Source: a virus (Duplodnaviria > Heunggongvirae > Uroviricota > Caudoviricetes). Taken from it: a stretch of 64,000 nucleotides of DNA. The notes beneath the pieces are model-generated. The model searched no databases. It saw only the letters and a program-made list of their open reading frames with translations, and was not told the DNA's origin. Made by a program: the position numbers and the translations under genes. The stretch is taken from IMG/VR virus record IMGVR_UViG_3300045004_000084; one strand, 5' to 3'. Below are positions 3,665 to 64,000 of the stretch, piece after piece. Numbering within the stretch: position 1 is the stretch's first letter; each line of letters starts with the position of its first letter.

Positions 3665-3711
3665 TGAGTCTCCCGATCTACCGAATCGCCACGCCGGTCG
3701 TCACCGTGCGA

Positions 3712-4176
3712 TTACGGGATCCGGTTGAGTTGCCCGAACATTCCCTGGACCTGCTCGTTGATGAGCATGTCCTGGGCCTGCATCGAGTACGCGACGGACA
3801 TCAACACGACCGCCTTCGCGATCAGGATGATGAAGCCGCCCACCCCGGCGCCGGAACAGGCCGAATTCCCGAGTAGCAGGAAGACGTCCTTGTCGCCCTT
3901 GGAACACGGATTCCCCAGAAGGGCGAGGAACGCCGACCCGACGATCGACGGGCCGATGATCTTGCCGAGCTGGATCTGGCCGGTGGTACGACCAACGACG
4001 TAGTAGCGGTTGTTCGAGCCGATCTCGAACAGAGTGTTCACGGTCTGACTGTAGTTGATGCTGAGCTGCTGGATCAAGTGGGTAGCCATCGCTTGACCAC
4101 CGATGATCAGCACGCTCGCATCGGCAGCGAAGGCCCCGGCGAAGGGGCTGTCGTTGCGACCGAAAATGTCAGCCAT
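3712..4176 (-). CDS. Small virion protein (154 aa), candidate tail tube protein by size and by position immediately after the sheath candidate
   Basis: A 154-aa ORF 80 nt downstream of the 922-aa sheath candidate. Beta-rich composition. No motif proof. Confidence 0.3.
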   Translation of the reverse strand: MADIFGRNDSPFAGAFAADASVLIIGGQAMATHLIQQLSINYSQTVNTLFEIGSNNRYYVVGRTTGQIQLGKIIGPSIVGSAFLALLGNPCSKGDKDVFLLLGNSACSGAGVGGFIILIAKAVVLMSVAYSMQAQDMLINEQVQGMFGQLNRIP

Positions 4177-4256
4177 TGCTCAGGACCTCCGTGTCCGTTA
4201 AGGAGGGGCGTCGTGCCCCTCCCGTTAATTGTGGATGCGCCTCGACTTTCTCCGGG

Positions 4257-13954: not shown

Positions 13955-15319
13955 TCAGTTGACGATCTCGGCGATGCACTTCTTCAGCTCGTCCCGCAGC
14001 CGTCGCTCGGCGGCCGTCTTGGCTTCGGAGAAGCGGAACCGCCCCTGCTTCTGGTACGTCTTCGCTGTCTTCACGAGCTGAATCAGGTTCCGACGAACCT
14101 GTTGAGCTTGTTTGACGCGGGCCATCTTCGTCGGGTCACCGCCAGCGCCGGCAAGGGGATCGCCGCCACCCGCGCCCGCAAGAGGATCACCGCCCGCACC
14201 AGCGAGTGGATCGCCGCCACCGCCTGCGCCGGCGAGCGGATCACCGCCGCCACCGCCGCCACTGCCCTGCAGTGCCGCCATGATCTCGTCAGGCGTCACG
14301 CCCATTTCCATCAGGGCCATGAGGAGCTGGTTGACCGCTTCCTCCTGACCGCCGCCACCGCCGCCACCGGCCATCGGGTCTCCGCCACCGCCGCCACCGG
14401 CCATCGCGCCGAGAGCCGACGGGTCCAGCCCGAGACCGCCGCCTTCGTCACCGCCGCCGCCACCGCCGCCGCCACCGCCTTCGTCACCGCCACCGCCGCT
14501 GTCGGACTTGCTCTCGCTCTTCGAGCCACTGTCCGAATCGCTGGACGAAGAACCGCTGTCCTCTTCGTCGGCGGCGCGCTTGTTGACAGCCTGCTTCTGG
14601 AACTCGACCAGGTAGTTCCCGGTCATGACGGCGGCGGCGAGCGCGTCGCGAATCGTCCCTTCGACCGCCGCCTGGACGGCCTGCTTCTCCTGCTCGTCGC
14701 CGTTAACGCCGGCAGCGGTAGCCGCCTGATACCCGGCCGCAGCGGCCTGGGCCACGGCAGCTTTCTGAACCTGCGGGGCCGGCGTGGTCTTCGCGGGGGT
14801 AGTCGGCGTCTTGACCGGAGTCGCAGGACTGGCGCCGGCGACCTTCTGACCTGCCGCCGCAATCGTGGCGAGAATGTCGTTGGCCTTCTTTTCGCTGAGC
14901 TTCTTCAGCTCCTCGAACTTCATCGACCCGTACTTCTCGTTGTCGTCGACGCTGGCCGGGTGGTCGGTGCCGGGATCGTCCTTCTTGTCCTTGTAGTTCT
15001 GCTCGTTGGCTTCGTCGTTACCGGTCTCGGTCGACGTCACGCCGATGTTGAATTGCTGGCTTTCCTGGTCGGGGCCTTTTTCCGACGCGGAGTCGACGTT
15101 GAGCGGAATCTGCTTCTTGACGTCGGACGAGTTCTCGCTCGAACGGGCGCCTTCCGCAGCGTTCTGGAGTTGGTCGTCGATGTTCTTGACGGGGTGGCTC
15201 GTTTCGCCGCCCACGGAGCCGGGCTCAGAGAGGGTGTCGGCCTTCTTCTGGGCCGCCGCCTTCTTTTCGCCTTGGACCTCCGCGAGGAAGCCGCGCAGTT
15301 GATCGAAGAGCTGAGGCAT
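13955..15319 (-). CDS. Acidic, low-complexity scaffold-like protein (454 aa) with Gly/Asp/Ser tracts and tandem 'GGGDPLAGAGG' peptide repeats
   Basis: Highly acidic, coiled-coil ends, internal Gly/Asp repeats (DNA 14120-14470). Its position upstream of the capsid candidate is typical of scaffolding proteins. Confidence 0.45.
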   Translation of the reverse strand: MPQLFDQLRGFLAEVQGEKKAAAQKKADTLSEPGSVGGETSHPVKNIDDQLQNAAEGARSSENSSDVKKQIPLNVDSASEKGPDQESQQFNIGVTSTETGNDEANEQNYKDKKDDPGTDHPASVDDNEKYGSMKFEELKKLSEKKANDILATIAAAGQKVAGASPATPVKTPTTPAKTTPAPQVQKAAVAQAAAAGYQAATAAGVNGDEQEKQAVQAAVEGTIRDALAAAVMTGNYLVEFQKQAVNKRAADEEDSGSSSSDSDSGSKSESKSDSGGGGDEGGGGGGGGGGDEGGGLGLDPSALGAMAGGGGGGDPMAGGGGGGGQEEAVNQLLMALMEMGVTPDEIMAALQGSGGGGGGDPLAGAGGGGDPLAGAGGDPLAGAGGGDPLAGAGGDPTKMARVKQAQQVRRNLIQLVKTAKTYQKQGRFRFSEAKTAAERRLRDELKKCIAEIVN

Positions 15320-16925: not shown

Positions 16926-18215
16926 TTACTTGTCAGGGCCTCTCGAGGCTTCTCTGCCGGACTGGATACCGCCGCCCATCAAGGCGCCGAGAATCGGGTT
17001 GCGGAGTTTTCCAATCCACAGATTCGTCCGCCCGGCGAATCCGGCCCGAGTCGCGGCACGCGCCGACGGAGTTCGGGCCGCCGCTGCCTGCGCCTTCGCC
17101 CGAGCAGCGGCCTCTTCGGCTTGCGCCTTAGCCACCTGTGCCTTGTACGAATTCAACGTCGCTTCGAGTGGCGCACGCCTGGCCGCCATGTCCTTCTGTA
17201 CTTGACCGTACAGAGTCTGCAGAAACGAATCGCTCGATCTGCGGCTCATGTCAATGAACCCGCCATGGGCGGCCAAGCGCCGGTTCAATTCGGCTAATTG
17301 CGTCGGCCCAAGATTGCGAGCTGCTCTCAAATAAGCATCGTTGGCTCCGGGTCCGCGAATGACCTTCGCGGCTGTCAGGGCTCTGATCCGATTCTGCAGA
17401 TCGGCCTGAGGAGCAGTGAAATTCTTAGCCGTCGATGCGGCCGTACTGGCGTTGAAGTTATGGTACCTCCGGCTGATATCCGGGCCGGCCTTGTCCGCCA
17501 TCGCCATCACAGTCGGGAACGCGATGGCTCCGGCCCCGGCTCCCTGGGCCACCCGCAATCCGCTGCGAGCGAGTTGCTTACCGCCCTCAGCCAGGTTGTT
17601 CAAGCTGAAGACGCTCTCGCCGCTGTCGACACCGACAAAATTCTGACTGGTGACAGGAGGCTTCGGGCCTGTCGTCACTGGACCCGTTCCTGCGGCAGTT
17701 CCTACGACATTTCCTCCACCAGCTACTGTGCCGGTTCCTGTGCCTGTCTCTTTGCTCATGCCCGGCTTCTCGTCCGGTTTCGGCTTCTTGGCGTTGAGCA
17801 ATTGGGATCCGCCGTATCCGGCCGCCGCCCCACCCAGGCCGCCCATGGCGAGTCCGGACAGGAAGTTCTTGAATCGGTTCCGCTTGCCGTCGCGGAGCAT
17901 ATTCAAGGCACCGAACGTGCTGCCGCCGATGAGGCTGCCGGCCAGCGCATACTGCTTATCCTTACTCAGACCTTTCCACCAGCCTTCGATACCGCCGGGC
18001 TTGGCGCTGCCAGCAGCGCCCTCACCACTGGCGGTTGCCGGCATAGTCGTCGGCGTTGTTGCCGGCGTTGTCAGATTTTTCCACCAGCGCTCGATACCGC
18101 TTGGCTTGGTGCTGCCAGCAGCACTGGCGGTTGCCGGCGTTGTCGTCGGCGCAGTCGTCGGCGTTGTCGTCGGCGTTGTCGTCGGCGTTGTCGTCGGTGA
18201 TGCCGGATCTCGCAT
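16926..18215 (-). CDS. Low-complexity virion protein: N-terminal Thr/Pro repeat (TTTPTTTPTTTP), glycine-zipper segments, Ala/Gln-rich C-terminus. Probable internal/ejected protein
   Basis: 12-bp DNA tandem repeats (about 18139-18198) encode the TTTP units. GxxxG runs (GGLGGAAAGYGG). Confidence 0.5.
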   Translation of the reverse strand: MRDPASPTTTPTTTPTTTPTTAPTTTPATASAAGSTKPSGIERWWKNLTTPATTPTTMPATASGEGAAGSAKPGGIEGWWKGLSKDKQYALAGSLIGGSTFGALNMLRDGKRNRFKNFLSGLAMGGLGGAAAGYGGSQLLNAKKPKPDEKPGMSKETGTGTGTVAGGGNVVGTAAGTGPVTTGPKPPVTSQNFVGVDSGESVFSLNNLAEGGKQLARSGLRVAQGAGAGAIAFPTVMAMADKAGPDISRRYHNFNASTAASTAKNFTAPQADLQNRIRALTAAKVIRGPGANDAYLRAARNLGPTQLAELNRRLAAHGGFIDMSRRSSDSFLQTLYGQVQKDMAARRAPLEATLNSYKAQVAKAQAEEAAARAKAQAAAARTPSARAATRAGFAGRTNLWIGKLRNPILGALMGGGIQSGREASRGPDK

Positions 18216-18218
18216 AGC

Positions 18219-19754
18219 TTACCTCCGTGCTTTCCGAGCTGCTTCCTCAGCGGCTGCCTGCTGCTTCATCTCAGCAAGCTGCATGCGGTCCCTGATACCC
18301 TCGAGCTCGCCAGAAAGATCTGCGACTTCCTTCGGAGTCAACTTGCCCTTTGTCGGGCTAGTCAACCGCTCCCTGATCTGATCCAGTCGAGTCTGCACAG
18401 TCAGGTCGCTCGGGCCTACGGTCGCCCCCAGATCGGCATTCGGATTCCCGCCGGGAGTGTACTTCAAGGGCGGCAGCGCTCCATAGCGAGTCCCGAGCCC
18501 GTTGGTCATCGTCTTGAAGTAATCGGACGTGACCCTCTCGTTCTCCATGTCGATGCCCTTCGAGGCACCGCCGATAAGCGTACCGACCAGGCCAGCCCTA
18601 CCGGTCCGGAAGATACTGCCGGGCGTCATCAGCTTCATGCGACCTTCCACCGGCACTTTGGCGCTGTACCCGTCGCTTACGAGCGCCCTGGCGATCGTAC
18701 GCGGGTCTTTGACGTCGGCCAAAGCCTTTGCGGCGATATTGTCAGACCCACGCAGAGCCGCCCTGATCTTCGCCTCCTGAGCCTGGAAGTCCGTGATGGC
18801 CCGGGGCATCACTGTCGGTGGTGCGGCTCCAGGCGCAACCGGACCGGGAACCGGCACCTTCCGCCACTTACCGAGCAGGTCGTCTAGATCGTCGGGGCTC
18901 AGATTGTCAACAGTGGCGAGGGCAGATGGACTCTTCGATAGGAACGACCGCAGAGTAGCGGCGTTCGGACTCGCGCTTGTGTAGTTGCCCAGGCCCGACC
19001 CGTACCGTCCAATCAGCCGGACGCCGGTCTCGCCGGCTCCGTAGATTCCGGCTCCGCGCCCGAAGCTGCCCAGTACCTCATCATTGCTCATGTTGTTGAG
19101 ACCACGGAGAGTCTTCTCACCCGTGACTTCGTCTTTGCCTTTGAATTCCTTCCCGACTCGCCGAATGTCTTTGTCCAAATTGGCCGACTGGGCGACACTG
19201 GGTCGCTGCTTCCCTAGTAAGCCGCTGGCCCCACCCAGGCTGCCGACTGCGGCACCACCGACACCGCCGAGCATGCCGCCAAACAGGATGTTCGAGAACG
19301 GACGCTTCCGCTTGTTCTTCGAGAACACGGTCGCGCCGAGACCGCCAAGGGCGCCGAGGCCGGCTCCGGCAATGCCGCCGGTGATTGCGTTCTGCAGCTC
19401 CGGACTCTGCTTGAAACTTTCGCGGATGCCAGCCCCAGCTTGATCGCCGACCCACTTCTTGAGGCCGCCCAGATTACGGTCGAAGAAGTCGGGCTCCGGT
19501 GTTGGCTCCGGTGTTGGCGTCGGTGTTGGCGTCGGTGTTGGCGTCGGTGCCGGCGCAGGCACAGCCGGCGGCGTCGTAGCGTTCGGATTGGCCTCTTTGA
19601 GCATCGCGGCCTGCTTGATGAGGTCGTCCGCCCACGCCGGTCGCTCGCCGGCCTTCACCACGCCACCCAAAGCGCGGCTCGCCACGGCCCGATCGGCGAG
19701 CATGGTAGCTGCGTCGGCAACACTCCCATCAAGCCAGGACAGATCGGCCGGCAT
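18219..19754 (-). CDS. Low-complexity virion protein with a (TP)n/(EP)n linker and glycine zippers (GGIAGAGLGALGGLGA). Paralog-like to the 16926-18215 protein
   Basis: TPTPTPTPTPTPEPTPEP repeat (DNA about 19495-19552). Gly-zipper motifs. Confidence 0.5.
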   Translation of the reverse strand: MPADLSWLDGSVADAATMLADRAVASRALGGVVKAGERPAWADDLIKQAAMLKEANPNATTPPAVPAPAPTPTPTPTPTPTPEPTPEPDFFDRNLGGLKKWVGDQAGAGIRESFKQSPELQNAITGGIAGAGLGALGGLGATVFSKNKRKRPFSNILFGGMLGGVGGAAVGSLGGASGLLGKQRPSVAQSANLDKDIRRVGKEFKGKDEVTGEKTLRGLNNMSNDEVLGSFGRGAGIYGAGETGVRLIGRYGSGLGNYTSASPNAATLRSFLSKSPSALATVDNLSPDDLDDLLGKWRKVPVPGPVAPGAAPPTVMPRAITDFQAQEAKIRAALRGSDNIAAKALADVKDPRTIARALVSDGYSAKVPVEGRMKLMTPGSIFRTGRAGLVGTLIGGASKGIDMENERVTSDYFKTMTNGLGTRYGALPPLKYTPGGNPNADLGATVGPSDLTVQTRLDQIRERLTSPTKGKLTPKEVADLSGELEGIRDRMQLAEMKQQAAAEEAARKARR

Positions 19755-25885: not shown

Positions 25886-26398
25886 CTATACACGGGGTTT
25901 GTTCGGATCCCCGGCTAACAAAGTCCTCATGTTTTGCCCGCCCCGTGCCAAATCGGCTACCGCTGCCAGACCAGGCAGTCCGGCGTACCCGGCGATCCCC
26001 TTCGTTACCGGCTGCATCGCTCCCATGAACTGCCCGATCTGCTCGGGCTTGATGTTCTGGAGAAAACCGAGCATCCCGCCGGTCGGATCAGCGTCCGGGG
26101 CGGGTGGCGCCGGTGGCGGCTGGGGTACAGGCGCAGGGGGCGGAACCGGGGGCGGAACCGGGGGCGGAACAGCCGCCCGAGCCGGTGAAGGCGTCGGCAC
26201 CGGCGGTGGAACCGGCGGTGGAACCGGCGGCTTAGGCGGCGCCGGACGGGGCGCCGGAGCCGGCATCGGCGGCGGCTTAGGCATCGTTGGAGCCGTCGGT
26301 CCGGCGGGTCCGCCAGTCACCTTCGGCGGAACAGGATTAGGCCCCTTCGGATTGACGCCTTCGGCCGCCAACTTCGCCAGCATAATCTCGAGTTTCAC
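25886..26398 (-). CDS. Proline-rich protein (170 aa; PPVPPPVPPP tracts)
   Basis: ORF whose start overlaps the beta'C gene end by 4 nt. Confidence 0.4.
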   Translation of the reverse strand: MKLEIMLAKLAAEGVNPKGPNPVPPKVTGGPAGPTAPTMPKPPPMPAPAPRPAPPKPPVPPPVPPPVPTPSPARAAVPPPVPPPVPPPAPVPQPPPAPPAPDADPTGGMLGFLQNIKPEQIGQFMGAMQPVTKGIAGYAGLPGLAAVADLARGGQNMRTLLAGDPNKPRV

Positions 26399-29204: not shown

Positions 29205-30010
29205 CAGAGGTTCAGCTTTCGGTGGATCGCCAGCATCGCCGCTGCCTTCTCCGCAACCGACGCGGTCTTGGCTCCGCCGAGCGGCTGGATCGGAAGGATG
29301 GGCTTGATGCCGGTCGGGTTATTCGCCTTCTTGTCAGTGCCAGAGCTGCCGCCACCGGACCCCGACGAGGACGAGCCGCCGTCCTTCGAGTCCCCGCCCT
29401 CATCGCCTTCGGGCTTGGGCTCGTCGAGGATGTCGTACGGCAGCGGAACGCCGATCGCACTGTAGAGGTGCGTCATCAGCTTCTGGTTACGCTGCATGTA
29501 CTGCTGAAGTTGCTCGGGGTCGATCTTCCCCTTGCCCTTCGGCTTGGCGCCGGCCGAGCCGGCGCCGTTGCCCATTGCCTGTTGAATCTCCTCGCGGATA
29601 ATCGAGCGGATGTCACCGCCAGCGCCGGCCGCAGCCGGATCGGACGGAGGAGGCGGCGGCGCCCCGCCCATCGCAGCGGGGTCCATCGGAGGAGCGCCGC
29701 CACCTGCAGCGGCCATCATGGCCGGGTCCATCGGAGGAGCGCCGCCACCTGCAGCGGCCATCGGATCGCCGCCCGGCGGAGCCCCACCCATCGCAGCCGG
29801 GTCCATCGGAGGAGCGCCGCCTGCAGCAGCCATCGGGTCGCCGCCCGGCGGAGCCCCCGGAGGAGCGCCGCCGCCCGGCGGAGCACCGGGCGGGACAAAC
29901 GCGATTTTGACGTGCTTGACGGCCGCCTTCGCCGCCTTGAAAAGCTCTCGGTTCAGTGGCATGTGAACGTCCTTGTCGTGTATGACCGCTCCGCGCGGCC
30001 GTGGGTTCAA
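29204..30010 (-). CDS. Low-complexity repeat protein with 'GGAPPMDPAAMGGAPPGGDPMAAAGG' units, a Lys-rich segment and a Gly/Ser-rich segment
   Basis: Approximately 60-bp imperfect DNA tandem repeats (about 29600-29900). ATGA overlap with the upstream gene. Confidence 0.4.
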   Translation of the reverse strand: MNPRPRGAVIHDKDVHMPLNRELFKAAKAAVKHVKIAFVPPGAPPGGGAPPGAPPGGDPMAAAGGAPPMDPAAMGGAPPGGDPMAAAGGGAPPMDPAMMAAAGGGAPPMDPAAMGGAPPPPPSDPAAAGAGGDIRSIIREEIQQAMGNGAGSAGAKPKGKGKIDPEQLQQYMQRNQKLMTHLYSAIGVPLPYDILDEPKPEGDEGGDSKDGGSSSSGSGGGSSGTDKKANNPTGIKPILPIQPLGGAKTASVAEKAAAMLAIHRKLNL

Positions 30011-45639: not shown

Positions 45640-45681
45640 TCAGACATTAACCGTGTGGATTCAGACATTAACCGTGTGGAT
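45640..45681. repeat. Perfect 21-bp tandem duplication (tcagacattaaccgtgtggat x2) that duplicates the last 6 codons plus stop of the TIGR02996-like gene
   Basis: Units at 45640-45660 and 45661-45681 are identical. The stop codon of the gene (45661-45663) lies at the junction. Confidence 0.9.
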
Positions 45682-46263
45682 GTTGACCGCGTGGTTGTAC
45701 ACGATCAACGGCAACTCGTTGTCGTTCTCCCTCTTCGGTACTCCGGCCACGACGAACGGGGCCAGAACAATTTCGCACCCGAGGGAGCGCAGGCGTACGC
45801 CCAGGGCGTTGGCCTCATCGCACAACATGGGGCGCTGAATCGACTCGTCCGGCCCCGAGTTCTTGCGCGGCATCAGCACCCGAAACGTGAACGGATGACC
45901 GTCTAATTTCAGAGCGGTCAAGGCAATTCGGCGGGGCAAGTTCTCGACCGCGTACACGCTCTCGCCCAGCCCCCATCCAGTGGCGTCGCGTATCGCCCTG
46001 ATGACGGGAACCTTGGCGTGTGAGGGCCATCTCACCAGCGTAACGGCGTAGCTGCCCATGACTGCACCGAGCCAGCCGGGCGGGAGTGTCGTCAGCCCGG
46101 CCGACACGAGAGCCATGTCGTTTCGGATCCGGACCGCTGCCCGCACGAACGCGGCCTTTTCAGGCTGTGCGTGCTCGTCCAGCCAGTCGGCGTACACGAG
46201 CCGGCAGGCGTCGTCGCCAGGCTCTTCCGCAATCGACGCCAGGAAAATGTCTTCTTCGTTCAC
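45661..46263 (-). CDS. Protein with an N-terminal TIGR02996-type 'repeat-companion' domain (…IFLASIAEEPGDDACRLVYADWLDEHAQP…), about 200 aa
   Basis: Start set at a GTG (VVNEEDIFLAS...) that has an AGGAGGGG RBS 6 nt upstream. The longer track ORF upstream of that is Arg-rich junk. The 'LVYADWLEE' signature is characteristic of Gemmata/Myxococcus family proteins. Confidence 0.55.
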   Translation of the reverse strand: MNEEDIFLASIAEEPGDDACRLVYADWLDEHAQPEKAAFVRAAVRIRNDMALVSAGLTTLPPGWLGAVMGSYAVTLVRWPSHAKVPVIRAIRDATGWGLGESVYAVENLPRRIALTALKLDGHPFTFRVLMPRKNSGPDESIQRPMLCDEANALGVRLRSLGCEIVLAPFVVAGVPKRENDNELPLIVYNHAVNIHTVNV

Positions 46264-46283
46264 CACGGCAGTCCCCTCCTGTC

Positions 46284-46325
46284 GGGTAAACAAAAGGGCC
46301 GATCCCACCCGACGGGGATCGGCCC
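46284..46325 (-). terminator. Intrinsic terminator (minus strand) after the 46353-47138 gene
   Basis: gggccgatccc-acccgacg-gggatcggccc forms an 11-bp stem. The minus-strand tail is TTTTGTTTAC. Confidence 0.5.
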
Positions 46326-46352
46326 TGTTATGATCATCCCCGAGCGCCGGTC

Positions 46353-47138
46353 TCACTCGTCGTCGATTTCCTCGTCGTCCTCGGTCTGGTCCAGGTCGAG
46401 CAACTTCGAGATGTCGATGCCTTCGACATCGACACCATCGCTCCGTCTCTTCTCCCACATCGCGTCGATGTCCTCTTGCTTGCGGGGGTCGTACCTGAAC
46501 GCGAGCAGTTTCTCCTCGGCATTGTTGAACCGAAGAGGGTCCTCCTTGAACTCGGTCTGGATCGCCGCGACCTTATCGCGGAGTTTCTCCAACAACATGT
46601 CCCGCTCGAAGAGCAGGTTGTCCGGAAAGTCGGCGGTGAGGCGCTGCAACTCCCGGAGAACCAGGCCGTGAACGAACTGCTCCCAAAAGAGCAGGAGGCA
46701 CATGGCATCTTCGCCGAGAGCGTGTTTGAACGCTCTCGCCTTCGTGCGGTCCCTGATGGCCTCCAGTCTCTCCCGCGTGCGGCAGCCGTCCTTGTCGTGG
46801 AACCACTTCGTAATGTCCTTCAGGAGGTCGAGCCGACCTCCAGGGTGAAGGAGGTCCAGTAAGCCTACCTCCTTGCCCAGCAGGTAGCGGACCTGGGCGA
46901 CGGCCTCCACCGCAGAGTACGCGCTCTCCTCGCACATGGGGATGTCTTTCGACAACGCCTTCGGCAGGATGTTGCTGAGGATATCGCCGAGGCCGCTCGA
47001 CCGAAGCTGGTTCCAGCTCGCCAGCCTCGCAGCGCACTGAATCGAAAACTTCTGGCCGACGTTGCGCCGGCAGTTCGGGCAAAGGGGTTCGCCCTTCATG
47101 CCGTGCCCGAGGAGCTGCCCGAGAACTGGGTCGATCAT
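46353..47138 (-). CDS. Protein of unknown function (261 aa) with an N-terminal CPNC motif and a strongly acidic C-terminal tail (DLDQTEDDEEIDDE)
   Basis: ORF with protein-like composition. Confidence 0.45.
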   Translation of the reverse strand: MIDPVLGQLLGHGMKGEPLCPNCRRNVGQKFSIQCAARLASWNQLRSSGLGDILSNILPKALSKDIPMCEESAYSAVEAVAQVRYLLGKEVGLLDLLHPGGRLDLLKDITKWFHDKDGCRTRERLEAIRDRTKARAFKHALGEDAMCLLLFWEQFVHGLVLRELQRLTADFPDNLLFERDMLLEKLRDKVAAIQTEFKEDPLRFNNAEEKLLAFRYDPRKQEDIDAMWEKRRSDGVDVEGIDISKLLDLDQTEDDEEIDDE

Positions 47139-48720: not shown

Positions 48721-49425
48721 TCAACCGTTTTTTGCGTTTTTTTCCAGAATCCACTTTTCCTTGCCGTTCTTGATCGCCGCGAGCGCTTCGGCCATACGGG
48801 GATTGCGTAGGATCTGGGTCGGATCGAACTCGATGACGCCGCACGAAGACACCTCGCGAACGCTGTCCACGAAAGGCCCCAGGGCCTGGTAACGCCTGGG
48901 CAAATCGCTCTGGTCGACGGAGCCGCAGAAGATCATCCGGCCCCGCTCGCCGAGGCGGGTGAACGCCAGCTCGAGCAACTCCCACGGACAGTTCTGAGCC
49001 TCGTCGATCACCACCACGCAGTCGTCGAACGTGCGGCCCCGCATGTGGCTGAAGGCGACGATCTCGAAGAAATCGGCCATCACCTCGGCCGGCTTGGTCC
49101 AAGTCATCTTGGAGAGCACGTCCTCGACCGGCTTGAGCCACGGACCCATCTTGTCCTCGAGCGAACCGGGCATGAACCCGAGCGGCGGCCCGGCTTCTAC
49201 CGCCGGCCGGGTGAGCACGACCCGGCGCGGCCTGAACGGCAACTTGATGTCCCCCATGATGGCGCTCATAGCCATCTTGATCGCCTGGTGCGTCTTGCCG
49301 GTGCCCGCCGGCCCGATCAGAAACAGCCAGTCCTTGTCAGGAAAAAGCTCCTCGGATCTCTTCTGTCCGTCGTTGCGGGGGTGGGGTATCAGATCGCGGT
49401 TCCAGTGTTGCGTGTGTTGCCCCAT
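48721..49425 (-). CDS. phoH: PhoH-like ATPase
   Basis: Walker A 'LIGPAGTGKTHQAIKMA' and the PhoH-family core. Start trimmed to MGQHTQHW..., which has a GGAGGG RBS 6 nt upstream. Confidence 0.8.
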   Translation of the reverse strand: MGQHTQHWNRDLIPHPRNDGQKRSEELFPDKDWLFLIGPAGTGKTHQAIKMAMSAIMGDIKLPFRPRRVVLTRPAVEAGPPLGFMPGSLEDKMGPWLKPVEDVLSKMTWTKPAEVMADFFEIVAFSHMRGRTFDDCVVVIDEAQNCPWELLELAFTRLGERGRMIFCGSVDQSDLPRRYQALGPFVDSVREVSSCGVIEFDPTQILRNPRMAEALAAIKNGKEKWILEKNAKNG

Positions 49426-49474
49426 ATCGGTTCCCTCCGTGGGGGTCGTCCGTTTCACTCTCCCCTCTGATTCT

Positions 49475-51076
49475 CTACCCCGACAGGTAGAGCAGGTCGT
49501 GCAGGCGGGCCTCGGCCGTCTTGGCCCGCAGCGATGCCAGATCACGAGCCAGTTCCGACTCGTCGGCGAACTGGACCTCGTCGCGGAGCAGGTCGGGAGA
49601 CTGGCTGGTGAACATCTCCTTCACCGCCACGAGCTGCTCCGGCGTCAGGTTCAGGAACCACTTCCGCTCGTCTGGTTCCCACTTACCGGACAGGTTCTTG
49701 CCCTTCATGAACCGGCCGTGCAACGTGCCGTCGCCGACGAACACGTCGGCCCCCTCGTTGTCGTCGGGGTTGATGATCCCGTCGAAGTACCCGTAGTCGA
49801 CCGGGTAGCTCTTCGTGACAGGACCCGCAGGCGTGGGGAACACTTTCTGGAACCCCTTCGGGCGGTCGATCTTGATGGCCGGCAAGCCGGCGATCTTGAC
49901 CATCTTGCCGTCCGCGTTCGGTCGCTTGAACGACGACAGCAGGTCGGCCAGCTCGGTCTCCGCCACCTCCCGGTGGGAGTTGACCACTGGGCCGAACGCC
50001 TTCAGGACGGCCGACATCTCCTCCGGCGTCATCCCGTAGAGCAGCTTGGTCTCCGCGCCGCCTCTGGCGTCGGGCCTGTTGACCCGCATGACGCCGTGCG
50101 TACCGCCCGACCCCTTGAACACGTCCAGATCGTCATCGTCCTCGCCGACGTAACCCGGCAGGTACCCGTAGTCGGTCGGATACGTCACGCCCTCGATGGG
50201 ATAGTCTTTCAGCGCCGCGTCGGACGGGTCACGGAACTGACGGTACGACCCCCGTGGCTGATCGACCGTGAACCCGGACATCATCTCGGCCAACTTGGTG
50301 ATCACAGACATGCGATCCTCCGGTGAGTTTTGCCCGACGTGGGATACGCCGGGCCACCGGATTGTGACAGCATCATGGAGTCGATAAAGAGCGGCCTTCT
50401 TGATATGCTTCTTGCGGATACGGGCCAGACGCCCGAGGCGGCCGACCATGCCGTCGCCTCCGCCCATCTGACCCTTGAGGTAGTAGTACGCCCCGGGAAC
50501 ACCCTCCGTGAGGACGTGAGACATCCCGCTCGTAACCGCCTTAGCGGCCTGCAAAGGCCCCTCCGCCTTCTGCAGGGCCATAGTCATCGACGGATGCGCG
50601 TCGAGATGCAGCGTCCAGTAGTCGGGGTGGCTGTGCAGGTGGTGGTTGTCGTCCACGCGGCGAAACGACTTGAACCTGTCCTGGCCGGTTTCGGGAATGC
50701 CGGCCAGGACGCTCTGGAACCCGAGTCTGCGGAGTTCGTCCTCGCTGATGTTTGTTTTGGGAATGGCGATGCGCTTGTGCCCGGTGCCGACGAAGTCGCC
50801 ACGGCTGTCCAGCTTCTTGGTGTAGCTGACCCACTTCTTGAGCAGGTCGAGAGGCGGCGGGGGAGTGGGATCGGTGACCAAACGGACCAGGGCGTTCTCG
50901 TCACCCAACACGCCGGCTTCCTCGACGGACTGCTCGTCGAAAGCCCGCTTCGATTGTGTTGGCGCCAAGACCCGACCGGCCTTCTCTAGAACATCCAGAA
51001 ACGACACGGCCGGCCGGAACGCCACGGCCCCGGTGCCGAGCGCCTCCAGACCGGCCACGACAAGATCCCATCCCAT
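49475..51076 (-). CDS. 533-aa protein with two tandem family-I inorganic-pyrophosphatase-like modules and an about 270-aa N-terminal extension
   Basis: 'YPTDYGYLPGYVGEDDDDLDVFKGSG' and 'YPVDYGYFDGIINPDDNEGADVFVGDG' both resemble the PPase active-site block 'YP.NYG.I..T...DGDP.DVLV'. Confidence 0.5.
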   Translation of the reverse strand: MGWDLVVAGLEALGTGAVAFRPAVSFLDVLEKAGRVLAPTQSKRAFDEQSVEEAGVLGDENALVRLVTDPTPPPPLDLLKKWVSYTKKLDSRGDFVGTGHKRIAIPKTNISEDELRRLGFQSVLAGIPETGQDRFKSFRRVDDNHHLHSHPDYWTLHLDAHPSMTMALQKAEGPLQAAKAVTSGMSHVLTEGVPGAYYYLKGQMGGGDGMVGRLGRLARIRKKHIKKAALYRLHDAVTIRWPGVSHVGQNSPEDRMSVITKLAEMMSGFTVDQPRGSYRQFRDPSDAALKDYPIEGVTYPTDYGYLPGYVGEDDDDLDVFKGSGGTHGVMRVNRPDARGGAETKLLYGMTPEEMSAVLKAFGPVVNSHREVAETELADLLSSFKRPNADGKMVKIAGLPAIKIDRPKGFQKVFPTPAGPVTKSYPVDYGYFDGIINPDDNEGADVFVGDGTLHGRFMKGKNLSGKWEPDERKWFLNLTPEQLVAVKEMFTSQSPDLLRDEVQFADESELARDLASLRAKTAEARLHDLLYLSG

Positions 51077-51092
51077 AAACCGTCCTCCGTCA

Positions 51093-51494
51093 TCACCGAC
51101 GCCAGAACCGATTAGCCGGTTGTTCTGGCGGCGGAGTCTGCGGAAGGCCGAGCTTGGCCTCCTGCTCGTTGCCGAATCGCTGCAGACTCTTCACGCGCCA
51201 CCGGTCGCCCAGAAGGCCGAGCCCGATACCGGTCCCCGACAGTCCAGCGCCGCCGGCGGAGCCGAGTAGGATGTTCTTCAAGTTGCTGTTGCCGGCTGGC
51301 TCGGGAGCAACAGGGGCAGGCCGTATCGGCCGTACCGAAGGTCGCGAAGCAGGTCTCGGCGCCGGAACCGGCGTCGGAGGCGGCGGCACCGGCGTCGGAG
51401 GCGGCGGTTTGGGCGGCATTACAGTCCCGAAACCAGGAGGCGGACCACCTGGTTTTGCGGGAAGCGGAAGGCTGCCGTATGGGGTTCTAATCAC
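51093..51494 (-). CDS. Pro-rich ORF (133 aa). It is probably the 3' half of a gene split by the 65-bp duplication
   Basis: GTG start inside duplication copy 1. The protein begins (M)IRTPYGS, the same peptide that ends the upstream ORF. Confidence 0.4.
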   Translation of the reverse strand: MIRTPYGSLPLPAKPGGPPPGFGTVMPPKPPPPTPVPPPPTPVPAPRPASRPSVRPIRPAPVAPEPAGNSNLKNILLGSAGGAGLSGTGIGLGLLGDRWRVKSLQRFGNEQEAKLGLPQTPPPEQPANRFWRR

Positions 51495-51601
51495 TGGCGG
51501 TTTGGGCGCAGGAGCCGGAACGGGGACCGGCTTTGGCTGCCGTATGGGGTTCTAATCACTGGCGGTTTGGGCGCAGGAGCCGGAACGGGGACCGGCTTTG
51601 G
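51472..51601. repeat. Perfect 65-bp direct tandem duplication (2 x 65 bp)
   Basis: 51472-51536 equals 51537-51601 (ctgccgtatggggttctaatcactggcggtttgggcgcaggagccggaacggggaccggctttgg). 65 is not a multiple of 3, so it causes a frameshift. Confidence 0.9.
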
Positions 51602-51847
51602 AGCCGGCTTGGGAGCGGCGGCCGGAACCGGGGCCGGCTTTGGAGCGGCAGGTACGGGCCTTGGAACAACAGGTGCCGGTTTTACGGCCGCCCCCGCCCT
51701 CGCCTTCGACCACGCCTTCATGGCGTCCATCACGTCCTTCGGACTGGCCGCCAGCTTGATCAGCTCGAACAAACGAGATTCCACTTCGGCCCGCTGGGGA
51801 CGAAACACCAGAGACGCCATCTTCATCATCGCGTTCGTCTTGCTCAT
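51491..51847 (-). CDS. Pro-rich ORF (118 aa; N-terminus MSKTNAMMKM). It is probably the 5' half of a gene split by the 65-bp duplication
   Basis: Ends ...KPPVIRTPYGS then 14 out-of-frame residues and a stop inside duplication copy 1. Confidence 0.4.
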   Translation of the reverse strand: MSKTNAMMKMASLVFRPQRAEVESRLFELIKLAASPKDVMDAMKAWSKARAGAAVKPAPVVPRPVPAAPKPAPVPAAAPKPAPKPVPVPAPAPKPPVIRTPYGSQSRSPFRLLRPNRQ

Positions 51848-52857
51848 TTTTTGTCCCCGCCATTGTCCTCCTTCTTGTTCTCCTTCGACCCGTCCTTCGG
51901 ATCGGGCTTGTTAACGCCCACCCCGGCCCGATTGGCGATCTGACGGGCGTCGTGGCGACGCTTCGCCCCGCCCAGAGCCGTCGCGGTCGCATTCGTCACG
52001 TCGTCGACGTACAGTCCGGGCTCAAGCCCGTCAGCCAGGTCGACACCGAGACCGCCCTCGTCGGCTCTGATAGCAAGGCCGAGCGGAGTATTCGACAGGA
52101 CCGCCATCGTCGGGCTCGTGGCCTTGCTGGCGGCGTTACGCTGAAGGATCCGCAGGTCCAGGGCCGACAGCGGTCCACCGACGAGGGGATTGAGCAGCCA
52201 CTGGACCTTGTGACGCTGCTCGTTGTACCGGTTGCCGGCCAGCAGCTTGTCTATCGCCAGCACCCGAGCGGACTGGTCGACGGCGTACGGCCCGTCGGCC
52301 TTGAAGATGCCGGCCTTCTTCTCCTTCTTGCCGCCCTTCTCGTCGTCCTGCTTGGCAAGCTGTTCGTACAGAGCGGCCTCGGCCTTGTCCGACTCGGGCT
52401 CGAACTCGTAGGGGGCAATGCGATCCTGGTACAGGCCCCGGGCCTTGTCCTGCCGCTTCGATCCGCCGGCAATCGCCGCCGCAGGAGCGCCGACCAGTGA
52501 CAACGGATTGAGAGGGAACGCGCCGCTGAGGATCCGGAAAGTCGGACTGGTAGCCCTACTGGCGTTCACCCGGCGGTCGAACCGGTAACCGACCTCCGAC
52601 AGCGGCCCGCTAACGAACGGGTTGAGCCAGTAGTGGAACGGATGCTTCTTGCGATTGCGGGCCAGAGCCTGGATGATTTGGTCGTCGGCTGCCACGTCGG
52701 CTGCCGAGTCGGCGGTGTACGCCCCCAGGGAAGCCGCCATCTTCATCACGGCCTTGTCCGAACACGGCTTTTTCTGCCGGGCTTTCTGCCCGTCCGTCCG
52801 GACCTCTTTCGCCGAGATCAGGAACGACAGCTTCATCATCGCATTCGTCTTGCTCAT
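51844..52857 (-). CDS. Protein (337 aa) with N-terminus MSKTNAMMKL (shared with the next gene) and two internal about 55-aa repeats (…WLNPFVSGPLSE… / …WLLNPLVGGPLSA…). Unknown
   Basis: ORF with protein-like composition. ATGA overlap with the downstream gene. Confidence 0.45.
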   Translation of the reverse strand: MSKTNAMMKLSFLISAKEVRTDGQKARQKKPCSDKAVMKMAASLGAYTADSAADVAADDQIIQALARNRKKHPFHYWLNPFVSGPLSEVGYRFDRRVNASRATSPTFRILSGAFPLNPLSLVGAPAAAIAGGSKRQDKARGLYQDRIAPYEFEPESDKAEAALYEQLAKQDDEKGGKKEKKAGIFKADGPYAVDQSARVLAIDKLLAGNRYNEQRHKVQWLLNPLVGGPLSALDLRILQRNAASKATSPTMAVLSNTPLGLAIRADEGGLGVDLADGLEPGLYVDDVTNATATALGGAKRRHDARQIANRAGVGVNKPDPKDGSKENKKEDNGGDKK

Positions 52858-53016
52858 ACGATCTCCTGCTTCTTCTTATTCTTCTGGTTCCGCCACGGGG
52901 CAGGGCCGAGCACCTTGTCGGCAATGGGATCCTTCGTTCGCATCAGCAACTGCGACAACCCGTACGCGCCGGTTGCCGTTCCCACTGCAGGCATGATCGA
53001 CGACTCGGTGTCCGGA

Positions 53017-53097
53017 CCTTGTACCCGGCGACGATCGCCTCGTGGTGCTCGAGGTCGATGCGGCGCTCCAGTACTCTGGTATTGCAGGATCAGGTCC
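53017..53097. repeat. 81-bp copy (order B-A) of a segment of the 53902-54405 gene. It is the circularly permuted partner of 54159-54237 (order A-B)
   Basis: A = tctggtattgcaggatcaggtcc. B = (cc)ttgtacccggcgacgatcgcctcgtggtgctcgaggtcgatgcggcgctccagtac. The copies are identical base for base. Confidence 0.85.
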
Positions 53098-53368
53098 AGT
53101 AGCAGTTCCCCGGCTCGTACCCAAGCTCGTTTCTGCGCCTCTCCAGGGCGTGCCCCGGCGGCCTCAGCCCCATGTCCTCCAAGAAGGCCGTGAAACTGTT
53201 CCGCCACCTCGGACAGACGCGTATCCCGCGACCGCCGTAGTCCTTGTACTGCTTGTGCTTCTTTCTCTCGCAGCGCTCCACCATCGCCCGCCAGGAGTTG
53301 TACTCCGGCGTCCCGACCTTGCGGTGCTGCTCCCGACTTTTCTTCGGTCTTGGTCGTTGAGTTTTCAT
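53090..53368 (-). CDS. Small HNH-family homing-endonuclease-like protein (92 aa) of the phage 'GGRGI-VC-RW ... YEPGNC-W' family
   Basis: 'EYNSWRAMVERC...YKDYGGRGIRVCPRWRNSFTAFLEDMGLRPPGHALERRRNELGYEPGNCYWT' is the conserved block of small phage proteins usually annotated as HNH endonuclease. Real-protein composition, unlike the overlapping frame. Confidence 0.6.
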   Translation of the reverse strand: MKTQRPRPKKSREQHRKVGTPEYNSWRAMVERCERKKHKQYKDYGGRGIRVCPRWRNSFTAFLEDMGLRPPGHALERRRNELGYEPGNCYWT

Positions 53369-53888
53369 ACAGCACTCCTTTCTTTCGTACCGCGATGGTA
53401 GCGTGAAAAGGGTGCTTGGGGAAGGGCGTCAGGCCGTAGCTCTTCCGGAGCATAGCCAGATCGGGGCTGGCGATCTCGATGAACCACACCTTCGACATCT
53501 CCGGCCAGCCGGCCGGCTCGACCTCCTTGATAGGCCCCAGCGTGTAACGGAAGTGGTGACCCCACTCGTGGACCTTGTCGGCCCCGCCGATCTGGTCGAG
53601 CTCTTCGGGTCGGAACACAGAAACATGGCCGTTGAGACGGCCGTCTCTGAGAGGAAGCTGCGCCCCGTGCTCGTCGAGGGCGTCGAACGCGCCGCGAATC
53701 AGCGCGTTGGGGACCTTGAGAAGGCCCCAACCAGAACTGGATAGCTGAAGCTCGCCGCTGAGTGCGTGTACTTTGACGGCGTCGCCGCCGGCCTTGTACA
53801 TGAGGCCCACGGCCTCGCCCGTCTCGTAGCGGCTACGGGCGATCTCGGCGACGGTCTTGTAGAACGGGCGGGTCAGACTGGGGAACAT
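53367..53888 (-). CDS. 2H phosphoesterase (LigT / cyclic-nucleotide phosphodiesterase-like) domain. The annotated ORF continues without a stop to 52854, but that extension looks spurious
   Basis: Two H-x-T/S-x motifs ('NGHVSVF' at about residue 88 and 'FHATIAV' at about residue 162) at the spacing typical of LigT. The domain ends exactly where the HNH-like ORF begins. Confidence 0.5.
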
Positions 53889-53901
53889 CCGTGTCCTCCG
53901 G

Positions 53902-54405
53902 TCACGCGGCAGTGGTCGACTCCGGTGGGCTCGCTTGCCCGACGCTGCCCTTGAGCTCGGCCAGCTCCGCCTTCAGCTCGTGCAGCTCGGCCTGCTGGGC
54001 GTCGTACCGCCCCTGCATGGCGTCGTACCGCTCCTGCATGGCCCTGCCATCTGCTTCGCACTTCTCGTGGTTCTTCGCCAGAATGTCGAACTTGATCGAC
54101 AGGGCGTCGAACTTATCCCGCAGGTCGATGACCTCTTTGCGAGCCAGATCGCGGGCACTCTGGTATTGCAGGATCAGGTCCTTGTACCCGGCGACGATCG
54201 CCTCGTGGTGCTCGAGGTCGATGCGGCGCTCCAGTACCTCGATCCTCTTCTCTTCGACCTCGACCCTGTCGGCTTCAACGTCCACCTTCTTCTCGCGGAC
54301 CACGTTGCGACTGCGACCGATCAGATAGGCGGAGACGGCCGTCGCCAGGGCGCCGAAGCCGCCGATGAGGAGGCCACCGATCGAAAGCAGAGTCGAGGTG
54401 TCCAT
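53902..54405 (-). CDS. Membrane-anchored coiled-coil protein (167 aa): N-terminal TM helix then a long heptad-repeat region. Spanin-like or SPFH-partner-like architecture
   Basis: 'LLSIGGLLIGGFGALATAVSAYLIG' is a TM segment. The rest is E/R/K/L-rich coiled coil. A GGAGG RBS lies 8 nt upstream. It contains the A-B copy of the permuted repeat (54159-54237). Confidence 0.5.
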   Translation of the reverse strand: MDTSTLLSIGGLLIGGFGALATAVSAYLIGRSRNVVREKKVDVEADRVEVEEKRIEVLERRIDLEHHEAIVAGYKDLILQYQSARDLARKEVIDLRDKFDALSIKFDILAKNHEKCEADGRAMQERYDAMQGRYDAQQAELHELKAELAELKGSVGQASPPESTTAA

Positions 54406-62315: not shown

Positions 62316-64000
62316 TTACTTGGCATTCTCGAGCAGGCGCATGAGTTCCACAGCCTTCTTGGCCGCCCGCAATTTGTCTGCCTTCTCTTGAGGCGTCCCT
62401 TCCAAGTACGCCGGAGGGCTCTCCTCCCTAGCCAGAGCTTTCACCTGGTCCCAGGTTGCATTGTTATTCTTGGCCTGCTGGTAGAGCATTGCCACAGCCT
62501 GCCTACGCAGATCAGGGCTCATACGAGATACCATCTGCCCCAGCTCGGGTAGTGTTTTGCCGGACAAGTCCGGCACGCCTTTCACCATCGGAATTTTGTA
62601 CTCGGCCGCAAAGTCGTTGATGTTGGTGGCCTTCGACACAGTGACAGGAGTCCTAGGCGCCGGGCCGGGTTTCGGCGTAGCCACCGGCGTCGCAGCGGGC
62701 CTAGGACCAACGCCCGGCGCCCCCGGAACCGGGTCAGGAGTCGGTCCCGGAACTGGCCCTGGAACTGGCCCTGGAGTTGGATTCGGTCCCGGAGTCGGTC
62801 CCGGAACTGGCCCAGGGGTTGGCCCGGGAGTCGGATCCGGATCATTCATCTCCTTGATGGCATGCAACTCGTCCTGCCGATTCGCATGGAACTGATCGAC
62901 CTGCTTGATCATAGGCAGAAGCGGGCTGCCGGGCTGCGTGGCCTGCAGTTCTGCCGCGAACCGAGCCCGATCCTGAGGCTGCAAGGCGGCCAGGTACTGC
63001 ACCGCCTGACGCGACGGTAGCTTGCCGGCCACCAGGTCGTTGTACTGCGGAAGCTGCTTCAGGCTGTCGAGGCCGACGGCACCCACCGCACTCACGCCGG
63101 TGAACGAGTCGACCCTGTCTCCCATCGACGTCAGGACTTCCTTGTTGCGGGCCTCCGGCGACTTCATGGCATTCGACCAGAAGTCCTTCTGGAACAACTT
63201 GGAGAAGTCGCCGCCGGTCATCTTGTGGCCGCCGAACGCCGCCCCCAGTAGCCCCAGGATGGGGAGCCACGCCCCGCCGAACCCGAACATCGCGCCCATA
63301 ATGCCGACGACGCCCAGGCCCAGGCCGCCGAACGTGAGCATCTTCTCCATCGAAGTCATGTTGCCGAAGATCCCGGCGCCGATTTCGGGCGGGACCTGGT
63401 GCTCCATGATCGGCCGGCCCTGCGCGTCGATGCCCGTCTGCTGACCCTGGATGCGCTGCAGGATGTCGGAGTCGATACGGGCCTTGATCTCCTTGCCGAT
63501 CCGCGTGGCCGGCTCGGTCACCGGCTGCTGCACCACGGTCCCGTCGGGCTGACGGACGAACTGCATGAGCGGCTTACCGTAGGCACCGAGGACGGGCTGG
63601 GTGCGATTGGCCTCGCCGAGGAAGTCCTGCACGCTCTTGATCGGCGTGCCGTCCTCCTTGAACCCGCCGTCGGCAATGGCCTTGCGCATCGCGAAGTCGG
63701 TGTACTTCTGCGTGATGGCCTGGCCCCGCTCCCGCATGCCGACCAGCCGGGCCTGCGTGTCCGGATCGAGCGGGGATCCAGGCGGCCGGTCAGCCATCAG
63801 CTTCTTGATCTCGTCGTACTCCTTCTGGAACGCGGGAATGTGGTTCTCCCGCAGATCCTTCATGACCGTGCTCTCGTAGTGGGCCAGGGCCTGACCCTGA
63901 ACCTTCTTCCGCATCTCCATGTACGGCGCGAGCTTCTGGTCGTACTGCGCTTGCAACTCGGGCGGAATCGGCTGACCGGCCGCCTGGAGCTGGTTGATCT
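62316..64000 (-). CDS. Partial CDS (5' end beyond window end): glycine-zipper membrane protein with a (PGPT/PGPV)n linker
   Basis: The reading frame stays open from 63956 to 64000, and the track 'start' is merely the first in-window TTG. GIFGNMTSMEKMLTFGGLGLGVVGIMGAMFGFGGAWLPILGLLGAAFGG is a Gly zipper. The PGP repeat DNA is at about 62650-62840. Confidence 0.5.
   Translation of the reverse strand, partial: INQLQAAGQPIPPELQAQYDQKLAPYMEMRKKVQGQALAHYESTVMKDLRENHIPAFQKEYDEIKKLMADRPPGSPLDPDTQARLVGMRERGQAITQKYTDFAMRKAIADGGFKEDGTPIKSVQDFLGEANRTQPVLGAYGKPLMQFVRQPDGTVVQQPVTEPATRIGKEIKARIDSDILQRIQGQQTGIDAQGRPIMEHQVPPEIGAGIFGNMTSMEKMLTFGGLGLGVVGIMGAMFGFGGAWLPILGLLGAAFGGHKMTGGDFSKLFQKDFWSNAMKSPEARNKEVLTSMGDRVDSFTGVSAVGAVGLDSLKQLPQYNDLVAGKLPSRQAVQYLAALQPQDRARFAAELQATQPGSPLLPMIKQVDQFHANRQDELHAIKEMNDPDPTPGPTPGPVPGPTPGPNPTPGPVPGPVPGPTPDPVPGAPGVGPRPAATPVATPKPGPAPRTPVTVSKATNINDFAAEYKIPMVKGVPDLSGKTLPELGQMVSRMSPDLRRQAVAMLYQQAKNNNATWDQVKALAREESPPAYLEGTPQEKADKLRAAKKAVELMRLLENAK

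Follow-up and report, generated by a model that had tools for sequence, protein, structure and literature searches.

Tandem duplications and frameshifts that result from slipped misalignment are Streisinger-type mutations, exemplified by the rII duplications of phage T4, and duplications of this type are unstable and revert precisely. The 65-bp duplication described here, which lies in a Pro-rich gene of an uncultured tailed phage, resembles them in its identical copies placed head-to-tail, in the short microhomology at its end points and in causing a frameshift, as expected of a unit length not divisible by 3; unlike those laboratory mutants, it comes from a natural metagenomic population in which the mutant allele is predominant across samples. 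Hypermutable simple-sequence tracts, such as the polyG tracts of Campylobacter phages, likewise turn phage genes on and off by frameshifts among the members of a population, but such tracts are homopolymers or short units present in many copies and undergoing symmetric high-rate slippage, whereas here one 65-bp unit is present once or twice. Simple-sequence-repeat contingency loci, which are defined by many copies of a 1-7 nt unit, are also of a different build, the unit of the present locus being 65 nt long and occurring in two copies.

Duplication-based phase variation has been described for cap3A, a type 3 capsule gene of pneumococci (Waite et al. 2001, in the summary given by PMC11163986). 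As in cap3A, a tandem duplication within an ORF would constitute the OFF form of our locus and its loss the ON form, with both states found in one lineage. In contrast with cap3A, one type of duplication is seen here, and it is carried by a phage genome in a gene without known relatives; the locus is therefore at most a candidate member of the cap3A-type switches. The duplication is a known kind of mutation and represents no new mechanism.

The 65-bp duplication and the interrupted gene

The window, meaning the whole stretch of 64,000 nt that was analysed, is part of contig Ga0438296_000084 (103,911 bp) from JGI metagenome 3300044294. It represents a largely novel tailed-phage genome, in which matches were obtained to a tail sheath protein, an HNH endonuclease, an exonuclease, a 5'-3' deoxyribonucleotidase, PhoH and phosphohydrolases. 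Neither tRNA genes nor Rfam families at the gathering threshold were detected in these 64 kb (of a phage contig of about 104 kb). The genes near the duplication are all encoded on the minus strand and are tightly packed, and a search of 50800-53000 for promoter-like and terminator-like sites returned none. The features relevant to the locus are the following:

51844..52857, minus strand: upstream neighbour, a 337-aa protein of unknown function, co-oriented with the Pro-rich gene and overlapping its start
51809..51847, minus strand: start of the Pro-rich gene, MSKTNAMMKMASL, 87% identical to the 337-aa gene's start (52819-52857), of which it is a copy
51847..51491, minus strand: truncated ORF of the two-copy allele, 118 aa, comprising 104 native and 14 out-of-frame residues
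51537..51601, minus strand: 65-bp copy nearer the gene start, in the native frame as codons 83-104, PKPVPVPAPAPKPPVIRTPYGS
51470..51536, minus strand: 65-bp copy that comes second in gene orientation (51472-51536) together with the 2-bp microhomology (51470-51471)
51506..51500, minus strand: heptamer C_CCA_AAC, the sole in-phase X_XXY_YYZ in the truncated ORF, 3 codons before its stop
51494..51491, minus strand: GTGA overlap, the stop of the truncated ORF over the GTG of the remnant ORF
51494..51093, minus strand: 3' remnant ORF, 133 aa counted from the GTG, equivalent to residues 97-229 of the intact protein
51358..51407, minus strand: older in-frame 21-bp repeat in the same Pro-rich linker, 2.4 copies, 93% matches, PPPPTPV units
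49475..51076, minus strand: next gene downstream, 16 nt past the Pro-rich gene, encoding 533 aa with an InPase-like domain
14139-14497, 18135-18197, 19497-19556, 26136-26170, 29683-29857 and 62737-62840: other Gly/Pro-rich repeats

The preliminary description of this DNA had reported that 51472-51536 and 51537-51601 are identical over 65 bp, and both direct comparison and Tandem Repeats Finder (51470-51601, period 65, 2.0 copies, 100% matches, no indels, score 264) bear this out: the two copies are 100% identical and follow each other head-to-tail with no spacer, the copy-to-copy junction on the plus strand reading ...GGCTTTGG followed directly by CTGCCGTATGG... Because the self-match at period 65 covers 67 nt (51470-51536 against 51535-51601) and the unit only 65, the end points share a microhomology of 2 bp (GG on the plus strand), which is weak and near chance expectation. 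A perfect adjacent match of 67 nt, on the other hand, cannot be a chance occurrence in 64 kb. Of the 16 tandem-repeat rows obtained for the window, all the others have periods divisible by 3.

Since the unit of 65 nt is not a multiple of 3, the reading frame is shifted past codon 104. The truncated ORF, whose start codon shares an ATGA with the stop codon of the 337-aa gene upstream, runs through the first copy in gene orientation as ...KPPVIRTPYGS; the second copy is then read one base out of frame as QSRSPFRLLRPNRQ, until a premature TGA is reached at 51493-51491, 14 codons beyond the junction. In the JGI annotation this 118-aa ORF appears as a hypothetical protein on 6 contigs. A 112-aa alternative gene call is not on record. 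The 133-aa remnant ORF was left uncalled in the gene tables of the two-copy contigs that were inspected, and no Shine-Dalgarno sequence was found when one was looked for upstream of the remnant's GTG. The GTGA overlap is a possible termination-reinitiation site, and it may be speculated that a -1 slip on C_CCA_AAC would bring the ribosome back into the native frame. At the heptamer we found no stimulatory structure, the fold of 51630..51440 being no better than that of shuffled sequences (z = -0.28), no stem within 5-9 nt of C_CCA_AAC and no Shine-Dalgarno-like element.

In-silico removal of one copy yields a single ORF of 229 aa. The earlier view that the duplication frameshifts and splits one Pro-rich gene was thus upheld, together with the ORF and stop positions given for it; a single ORF upon removal of one copy had also been correctly predicted, although at a size of about 240 aa instead of 229, and the exact 229-aa allele has been assembled from other samples. 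The coding signals of the N- and C-terminal parts (GC3 and best codon log-likelihood) share one frame only in the single-copy form, GC3 amounting to 0.84 in the N-terminal 55 codons and 0.75 in the C-terminal 64, and the composition of the Pro-rich middle (43% Pro) gives no information on the coding frame.

No family in Pfam or PHROGs corresponds to the 229-aa protein. When the linker was left out of the query, a word-indexed search of 5.8 billion clusters returned no homologue outside the protein's own cluster, and exhaustive phmmer over 1.84 billion representatives returned that cluster, three low-complexity matches and nothing else; with the full 229-aa query there was no match and the own cluster, too, was missed among 8000 candidates, Pro-rich words being thought to swamp the search. 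AlphaFold2, run on the single sequence, predicts three short N-terminal helices, a disordered stretch at residues 53-167 and C-terminal helices, with a confidence (pLDDT 59) too low to support a fold search. A transmembrane segment or membrane anchor in the Gly-rich residues 171-189 is unsupported, since the highest Kyte-Doolittle mean over 19 residues is 1.17 and the segment is only weakly hydrophobic, and the C-terminal module of the 419-aa protein of IMGVR_UViG_3300005683_000176, in which a Gly-rich stretch looks alike, has no significant similarity to the 229-aa protein.

The Pro-rich gene and the adjacent 337-aa gene open with the same nine residues, MSKTNAMMK (39 nt, 87% identical). The first 27 nt of the Pro-rich gene, encoding these residues, copy the start of the 337-aa gene, but ahead of the two start codons the sequences show no relationship. 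A related peptide, AVMKMAAS (52732-52755), occurs inside the 337-aa protein, and similar ones are found at the C-terminus or in the interior of the 2H-phosphoesterases of related phages (AVEKMAALLGG in Ga0172367_10000882, 2999-3040, and AVEKLAGML in IMGVR_UViG_3300005683_000176). Peptides of this type may be the trace of a boundary at which gene modules recombined, or a shared peptide signal.

Repeats of other kinds are present in the window as well. The 21-bp repeat at 51358..51407 indicates that the Pro-rich tract had already been expanded by duplication at an earlier time. Another perfect tandem duplication, of 21 bp in two copies, is located at 45640-45681. There gene 45661..46458 ends in six codons and a TGA (IHTVNV and stop) that recur directly past the stop, leaving the protein unchanged; the duplication is also present in Ga0438293_001146 (JGI 3300044293), the contig that carries the single-copy allele of the Pro-rich gene. 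Several other genes contain Gly/Pro-rich tandem repeats that keep the frame, their periods of 12-72 nt being divisible by 3 throughout, and low-complexity linkers are a general trait of the proteins of this phage.

Gene content between the 2H-phosphoesterase and InPase-like genes

Alleles and relatives were sought with the 337-aa neighbour as the query. In Ga0172367_10000882, which encodes an 84% identical homologue of the 337-aa protein, the very next gene is the homologue of the 533-aa gene, which in the window has its own GGAGGA ribosome-binding site. In IMGVR_UViG_3300005683_000176, where the 533-aa homologue is 65% identical, this homologue directly follows the 2H-phosphoesterase gene, and both the 337-aa gene and the Pro-rich gene are missing. 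A two-gene organisation kept in relatives, which according to the preliminary description would, together with reads uniformly showing two copies, argue for a fixed and functional split, was not found: two of two relatives are without the gene, and the only other allele of the Pro-rich locus is the fused 229-aa ORF. As it is missing from the locus of two relatives, the Pro-rich gene is regarded as accessory, and the comparison of gene orders suggests that it is lineage-specific and dispensable.

The slot that extends from the 2H-phosphoesterase gene to the InPase-like gene holds the 337-aa and Pro-rich genes in the window (49475-53888) and the 337-aa gene only in Ga0172367_10000882 (2093-4676), and it is empty in IMGVR_UViG_3300005683_000176 (2745-5467). 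On the evidence of these three arrangements, the slot is a hotspot of accessory-gene insertion. Other searches were negative: megablast of 49000-54000 against 50,697 phage records revealed no close relative, an exact 47-nt unit search of IMG/VR found nothing, the 337-aa neighbour had no match in IMG/VR and the 533-aa neighbour none in GTDB genomes, and two weak relatives of the 337-aa protein (L009 and L010) have no comparable gene downstream.

The 344-aa "2H-SAK" ORF at the upstream end of the slot (52854-53888, minus strand) is a composite. Its residues 1-180 and its last 55 or so are homologous to the 419-aa 2H-phosphoesterase of IMGVR_UViG_3300005683_000176, and between these parts a 92-aa HNH endonuclease ORF in a different frame takes the place of the middle (53090-53368, minus strand; phrog_3377, E = 4.9e-31); the corresponding middle in Ga0172367_10000882 and IMGVR_UViG_3300005683_000176 is a Zn-ribbon-like Cys-rich region. 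GC3 changes frame at about 53360, and the outer ORF is nevertheless open across the insert. The HNH ORF may be a homing-endonuclease insertion or a domain replacement, and Rfam revealed no group I intron at this site. A direct repeat of 64 nt with 97% identity, its copies 1163 bp apart (53011-53074 and 54174-54237), places a copy of part of a 167-aa coiled-coil gene (VLERRIDLEHHEAIVAGYK) just past the HNH ORF, and Logan contigs break at the 30-mer shared by its copies.

Two alleles of the Pro-rich gene and their possible origin

Eight JGI contigs, assembled from several samples of one project series, share the two-copy allele with 100% identity, and 6 of these contigs carry the 118-aa gene call. 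Among the eight are Ga0438297_000094 (121 kb, sample 3300044451) and Ga0438292_023247 (sample 3300045417). A contig of a different project, Ga0233420_10049889, has the allele as well, with 3 mismatches in 1343 nt, all of them outside the repeat. These differences (positions 415, 601 and 1289) are all C>A in gene orientation and all non-synonymous, and may be sequencing or oxidative-damage errors and not true divergence, which makes them unfit for dating the duplication. One unit and one junction are common to all nine two-copy contigs (9/9), and different end points were not seen. In the Logan assemblies, which are based on a k=31 de Bruijn graph, one contig (L005, the same contig in 7 runs) stops exactly 30 nt into the unit and another (L012, in 2 runs and 4 similar places) has its first base precisely where the final 30 nt of the 67-nt repeat begin. 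At these boundaries the 30-mers occur twice in the window and the 31-mers once, which makes the break points the de Bruijn graph signature of a tandem duplication.

The single-copy allele is represented by JGI contig Ga0438293_001146 (17,615 bp, sample 3300044293) and Logan contig SRR35359043_27997 (4,483 bp), both of which encode exactly the 229-aa protein obtained by in-silico repair and align without a single mismatch to the window with one copy collapsed, the former over 17,457 nt and the latter over 4,483 nt. It is thus known from one JGI sample and one Logan run, which are perhaps the same sample. At k below 65 the single-copy path is contained in the two-copy graph, and collapse at low coverage could therefore mimic this allele; in favour of a real single copy, two assemblers agree on it in those samples and both show the duplication elsewhere. 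The two alleles, isogenic otherwise over 17,457 nt, come from different samples, and the majority allele differs among sister samples (3300044293 versus 3300044294, 3300044451 and 3300045417). The intact allele is either an ancestral form that is still segregating or a product of precise excision between the repeats: a perfect direct repeat of 65 bp is inherently prone to such excision, and given this instability, reversion may be the source of the intact allele no less than ancestry. The duplication had been called very recent in view of its perfect identity, an opinion to which the identity of the alleles over the remaining 17.5 kb lends weight, but with which the wide distribution of the two-copy form, its predominance and its presence in a second project agree less well.

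Our reading is that the genuine 65-bp duplication is probably of the slippage type, that through it a dispensable accessory gene has probably become a frameshift null or strong hypomorph, and that the locus is polymorphic, with the two-copy form predominant. Replication slippage or illegitimate recombination at the 2-bp microhomology would have produced it in the low-complexity Pro-rich linker, which is slippage-prone, given its older in-frame 21-bp repeat (51358-51407) and, elsewhere in the window, the second perfect duplication of 21 bp x 2 (45640-45681). Promotion of slippage by a hairpin was considered and rejected, as the strand fold of 51630..51440 is no better than that of shuffled sequences. 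With the frame lost past codon 104, the main product would be the 118-aa N-terminal fragment, deprived of the C-terminal 125 residues and with them of the second half of the linker and the Gly-rich helical segment, so the two-copy allele would be expected to behave as a null or strong hypomorph. As the gene appears to be dispensable, its loss would be tolerated and the two-copy allele could spread to its present predominance, the single-copy allele being an ancestral remnant or having been regenerated by precise excision. The mutational mechanism, like the direction and frequency of the interconversion, is what we infer from the two alleles as assembled.

An artefact of assembly or amplification, with a real genome that is single-copy, had been suggested at the outset and would account for the perfect identity of the copies and for the single copy in one JGI and one Logan contig, but it is very unlikely to be the origin of the duplication. 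Assemblers of the de Bruijn type collapse tandem repeats and do not invent them, nor do they create new junctions, and the copy-to-copy junction must occur in the reads before assembly; its presence in 8 contigs from several JGI samples, in a different project and, through the break points, in at least 7 Logan runs assembled with different software means that it was contained in the reads of many libraries and was recovered by two assemblers. Rather unlikely, in our estimation, is a reversible phase-variable switch, in which the duplication forms and excises often, so that ON (one copy) and OFF (two copies) are always present and selection shifts their ratio between samples. The cap3A duplications reportedly have different end points, and recurrent duplication should vary them here as well, yet nine of nine two-copy contigs share one junction; nor does a 2-bp microhomology give grounds for a high forward rate, and no hairpin or other structure was found (z = -0.28). 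The two states do share a background with no other difference over 17.5 kb, the majority allele varies between sister samples, a perfect 65-bp direct repeat is prone to precise excision, and cap3A offers a precedent (PMC11163986). Against this it has to be considered that the single-copy allele might be a collapse artefact and that, with the gene missing from relatives, no conserved switch architecture is demonstrable.

It is also improbable, to a slightly higher degree, that the two-copy form is a functional split or leaky allele that still yields the C-terminal half, expression being modulated and not abolished. Termination-reinitiation at GTGA would give two polypeptides, the stop and the GTG overlapping at 51494-51491, but upstream of this GTG there is no Shine-Dalgarno-like sequence and the downstream ORF was missed by gene callers. 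Alternatively, a -1 frameshift at C_CCA_AAC, the sole in-phase heptamer, lying 3 codons before the stop, would restore the native frame and give a 251-aa protein with an insertion of 22 residues, which would sit within the predicted disorder of the linker (residues 53-167); past the heptamer, however, there is no stimulatory stem-loop, the fold being that of shuffled sequences. The wide occurrence of the broken allele would suit a product that still functions, but GTGA and the heptamer both follow trivially from the native codons CCC AAA CCG CCA GTG, and coincidence is the simplest explanation for them.

Under the preferred reading, that of a genuine frameshifting duplication in a dispensable gene, the C-terminal part could still be partly expressed via the GTGA overlap or C_CCA_AAC. 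Selection, and not neutrality, could also be the reason why the broken allele predominates and is found in a second project. The first 200 nt or so of the untranslated stretch are C-rich (C 0.36-0.47 versus G 0.24-0.31), and Rho-dependent polarity on the downstream genes may be a matter of speculation.

In conclusion, the locus offers a natural case, from an uncultured phage population, of a frameshift by tandem duplication that is still polymorphic, its mutant and intact alleles being otherwise identical over 17.5 kb. For the use of public data this means that the 118-aa protein found in catalogues is a truncated form of a 229-aa protein, and that assemblies made with short k break or collapse at the 65-bp repeat. 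Were the locus a switch after all, it would be a phage counterpart of the duplication-based phase variation of cap3A, toggling an accessory gene ON and OFF. For the phage group as a whole, the arrangements compared here show the slot between the 2H-phosphoesterase and InPase-like genes to be a variable site for accessory genes.
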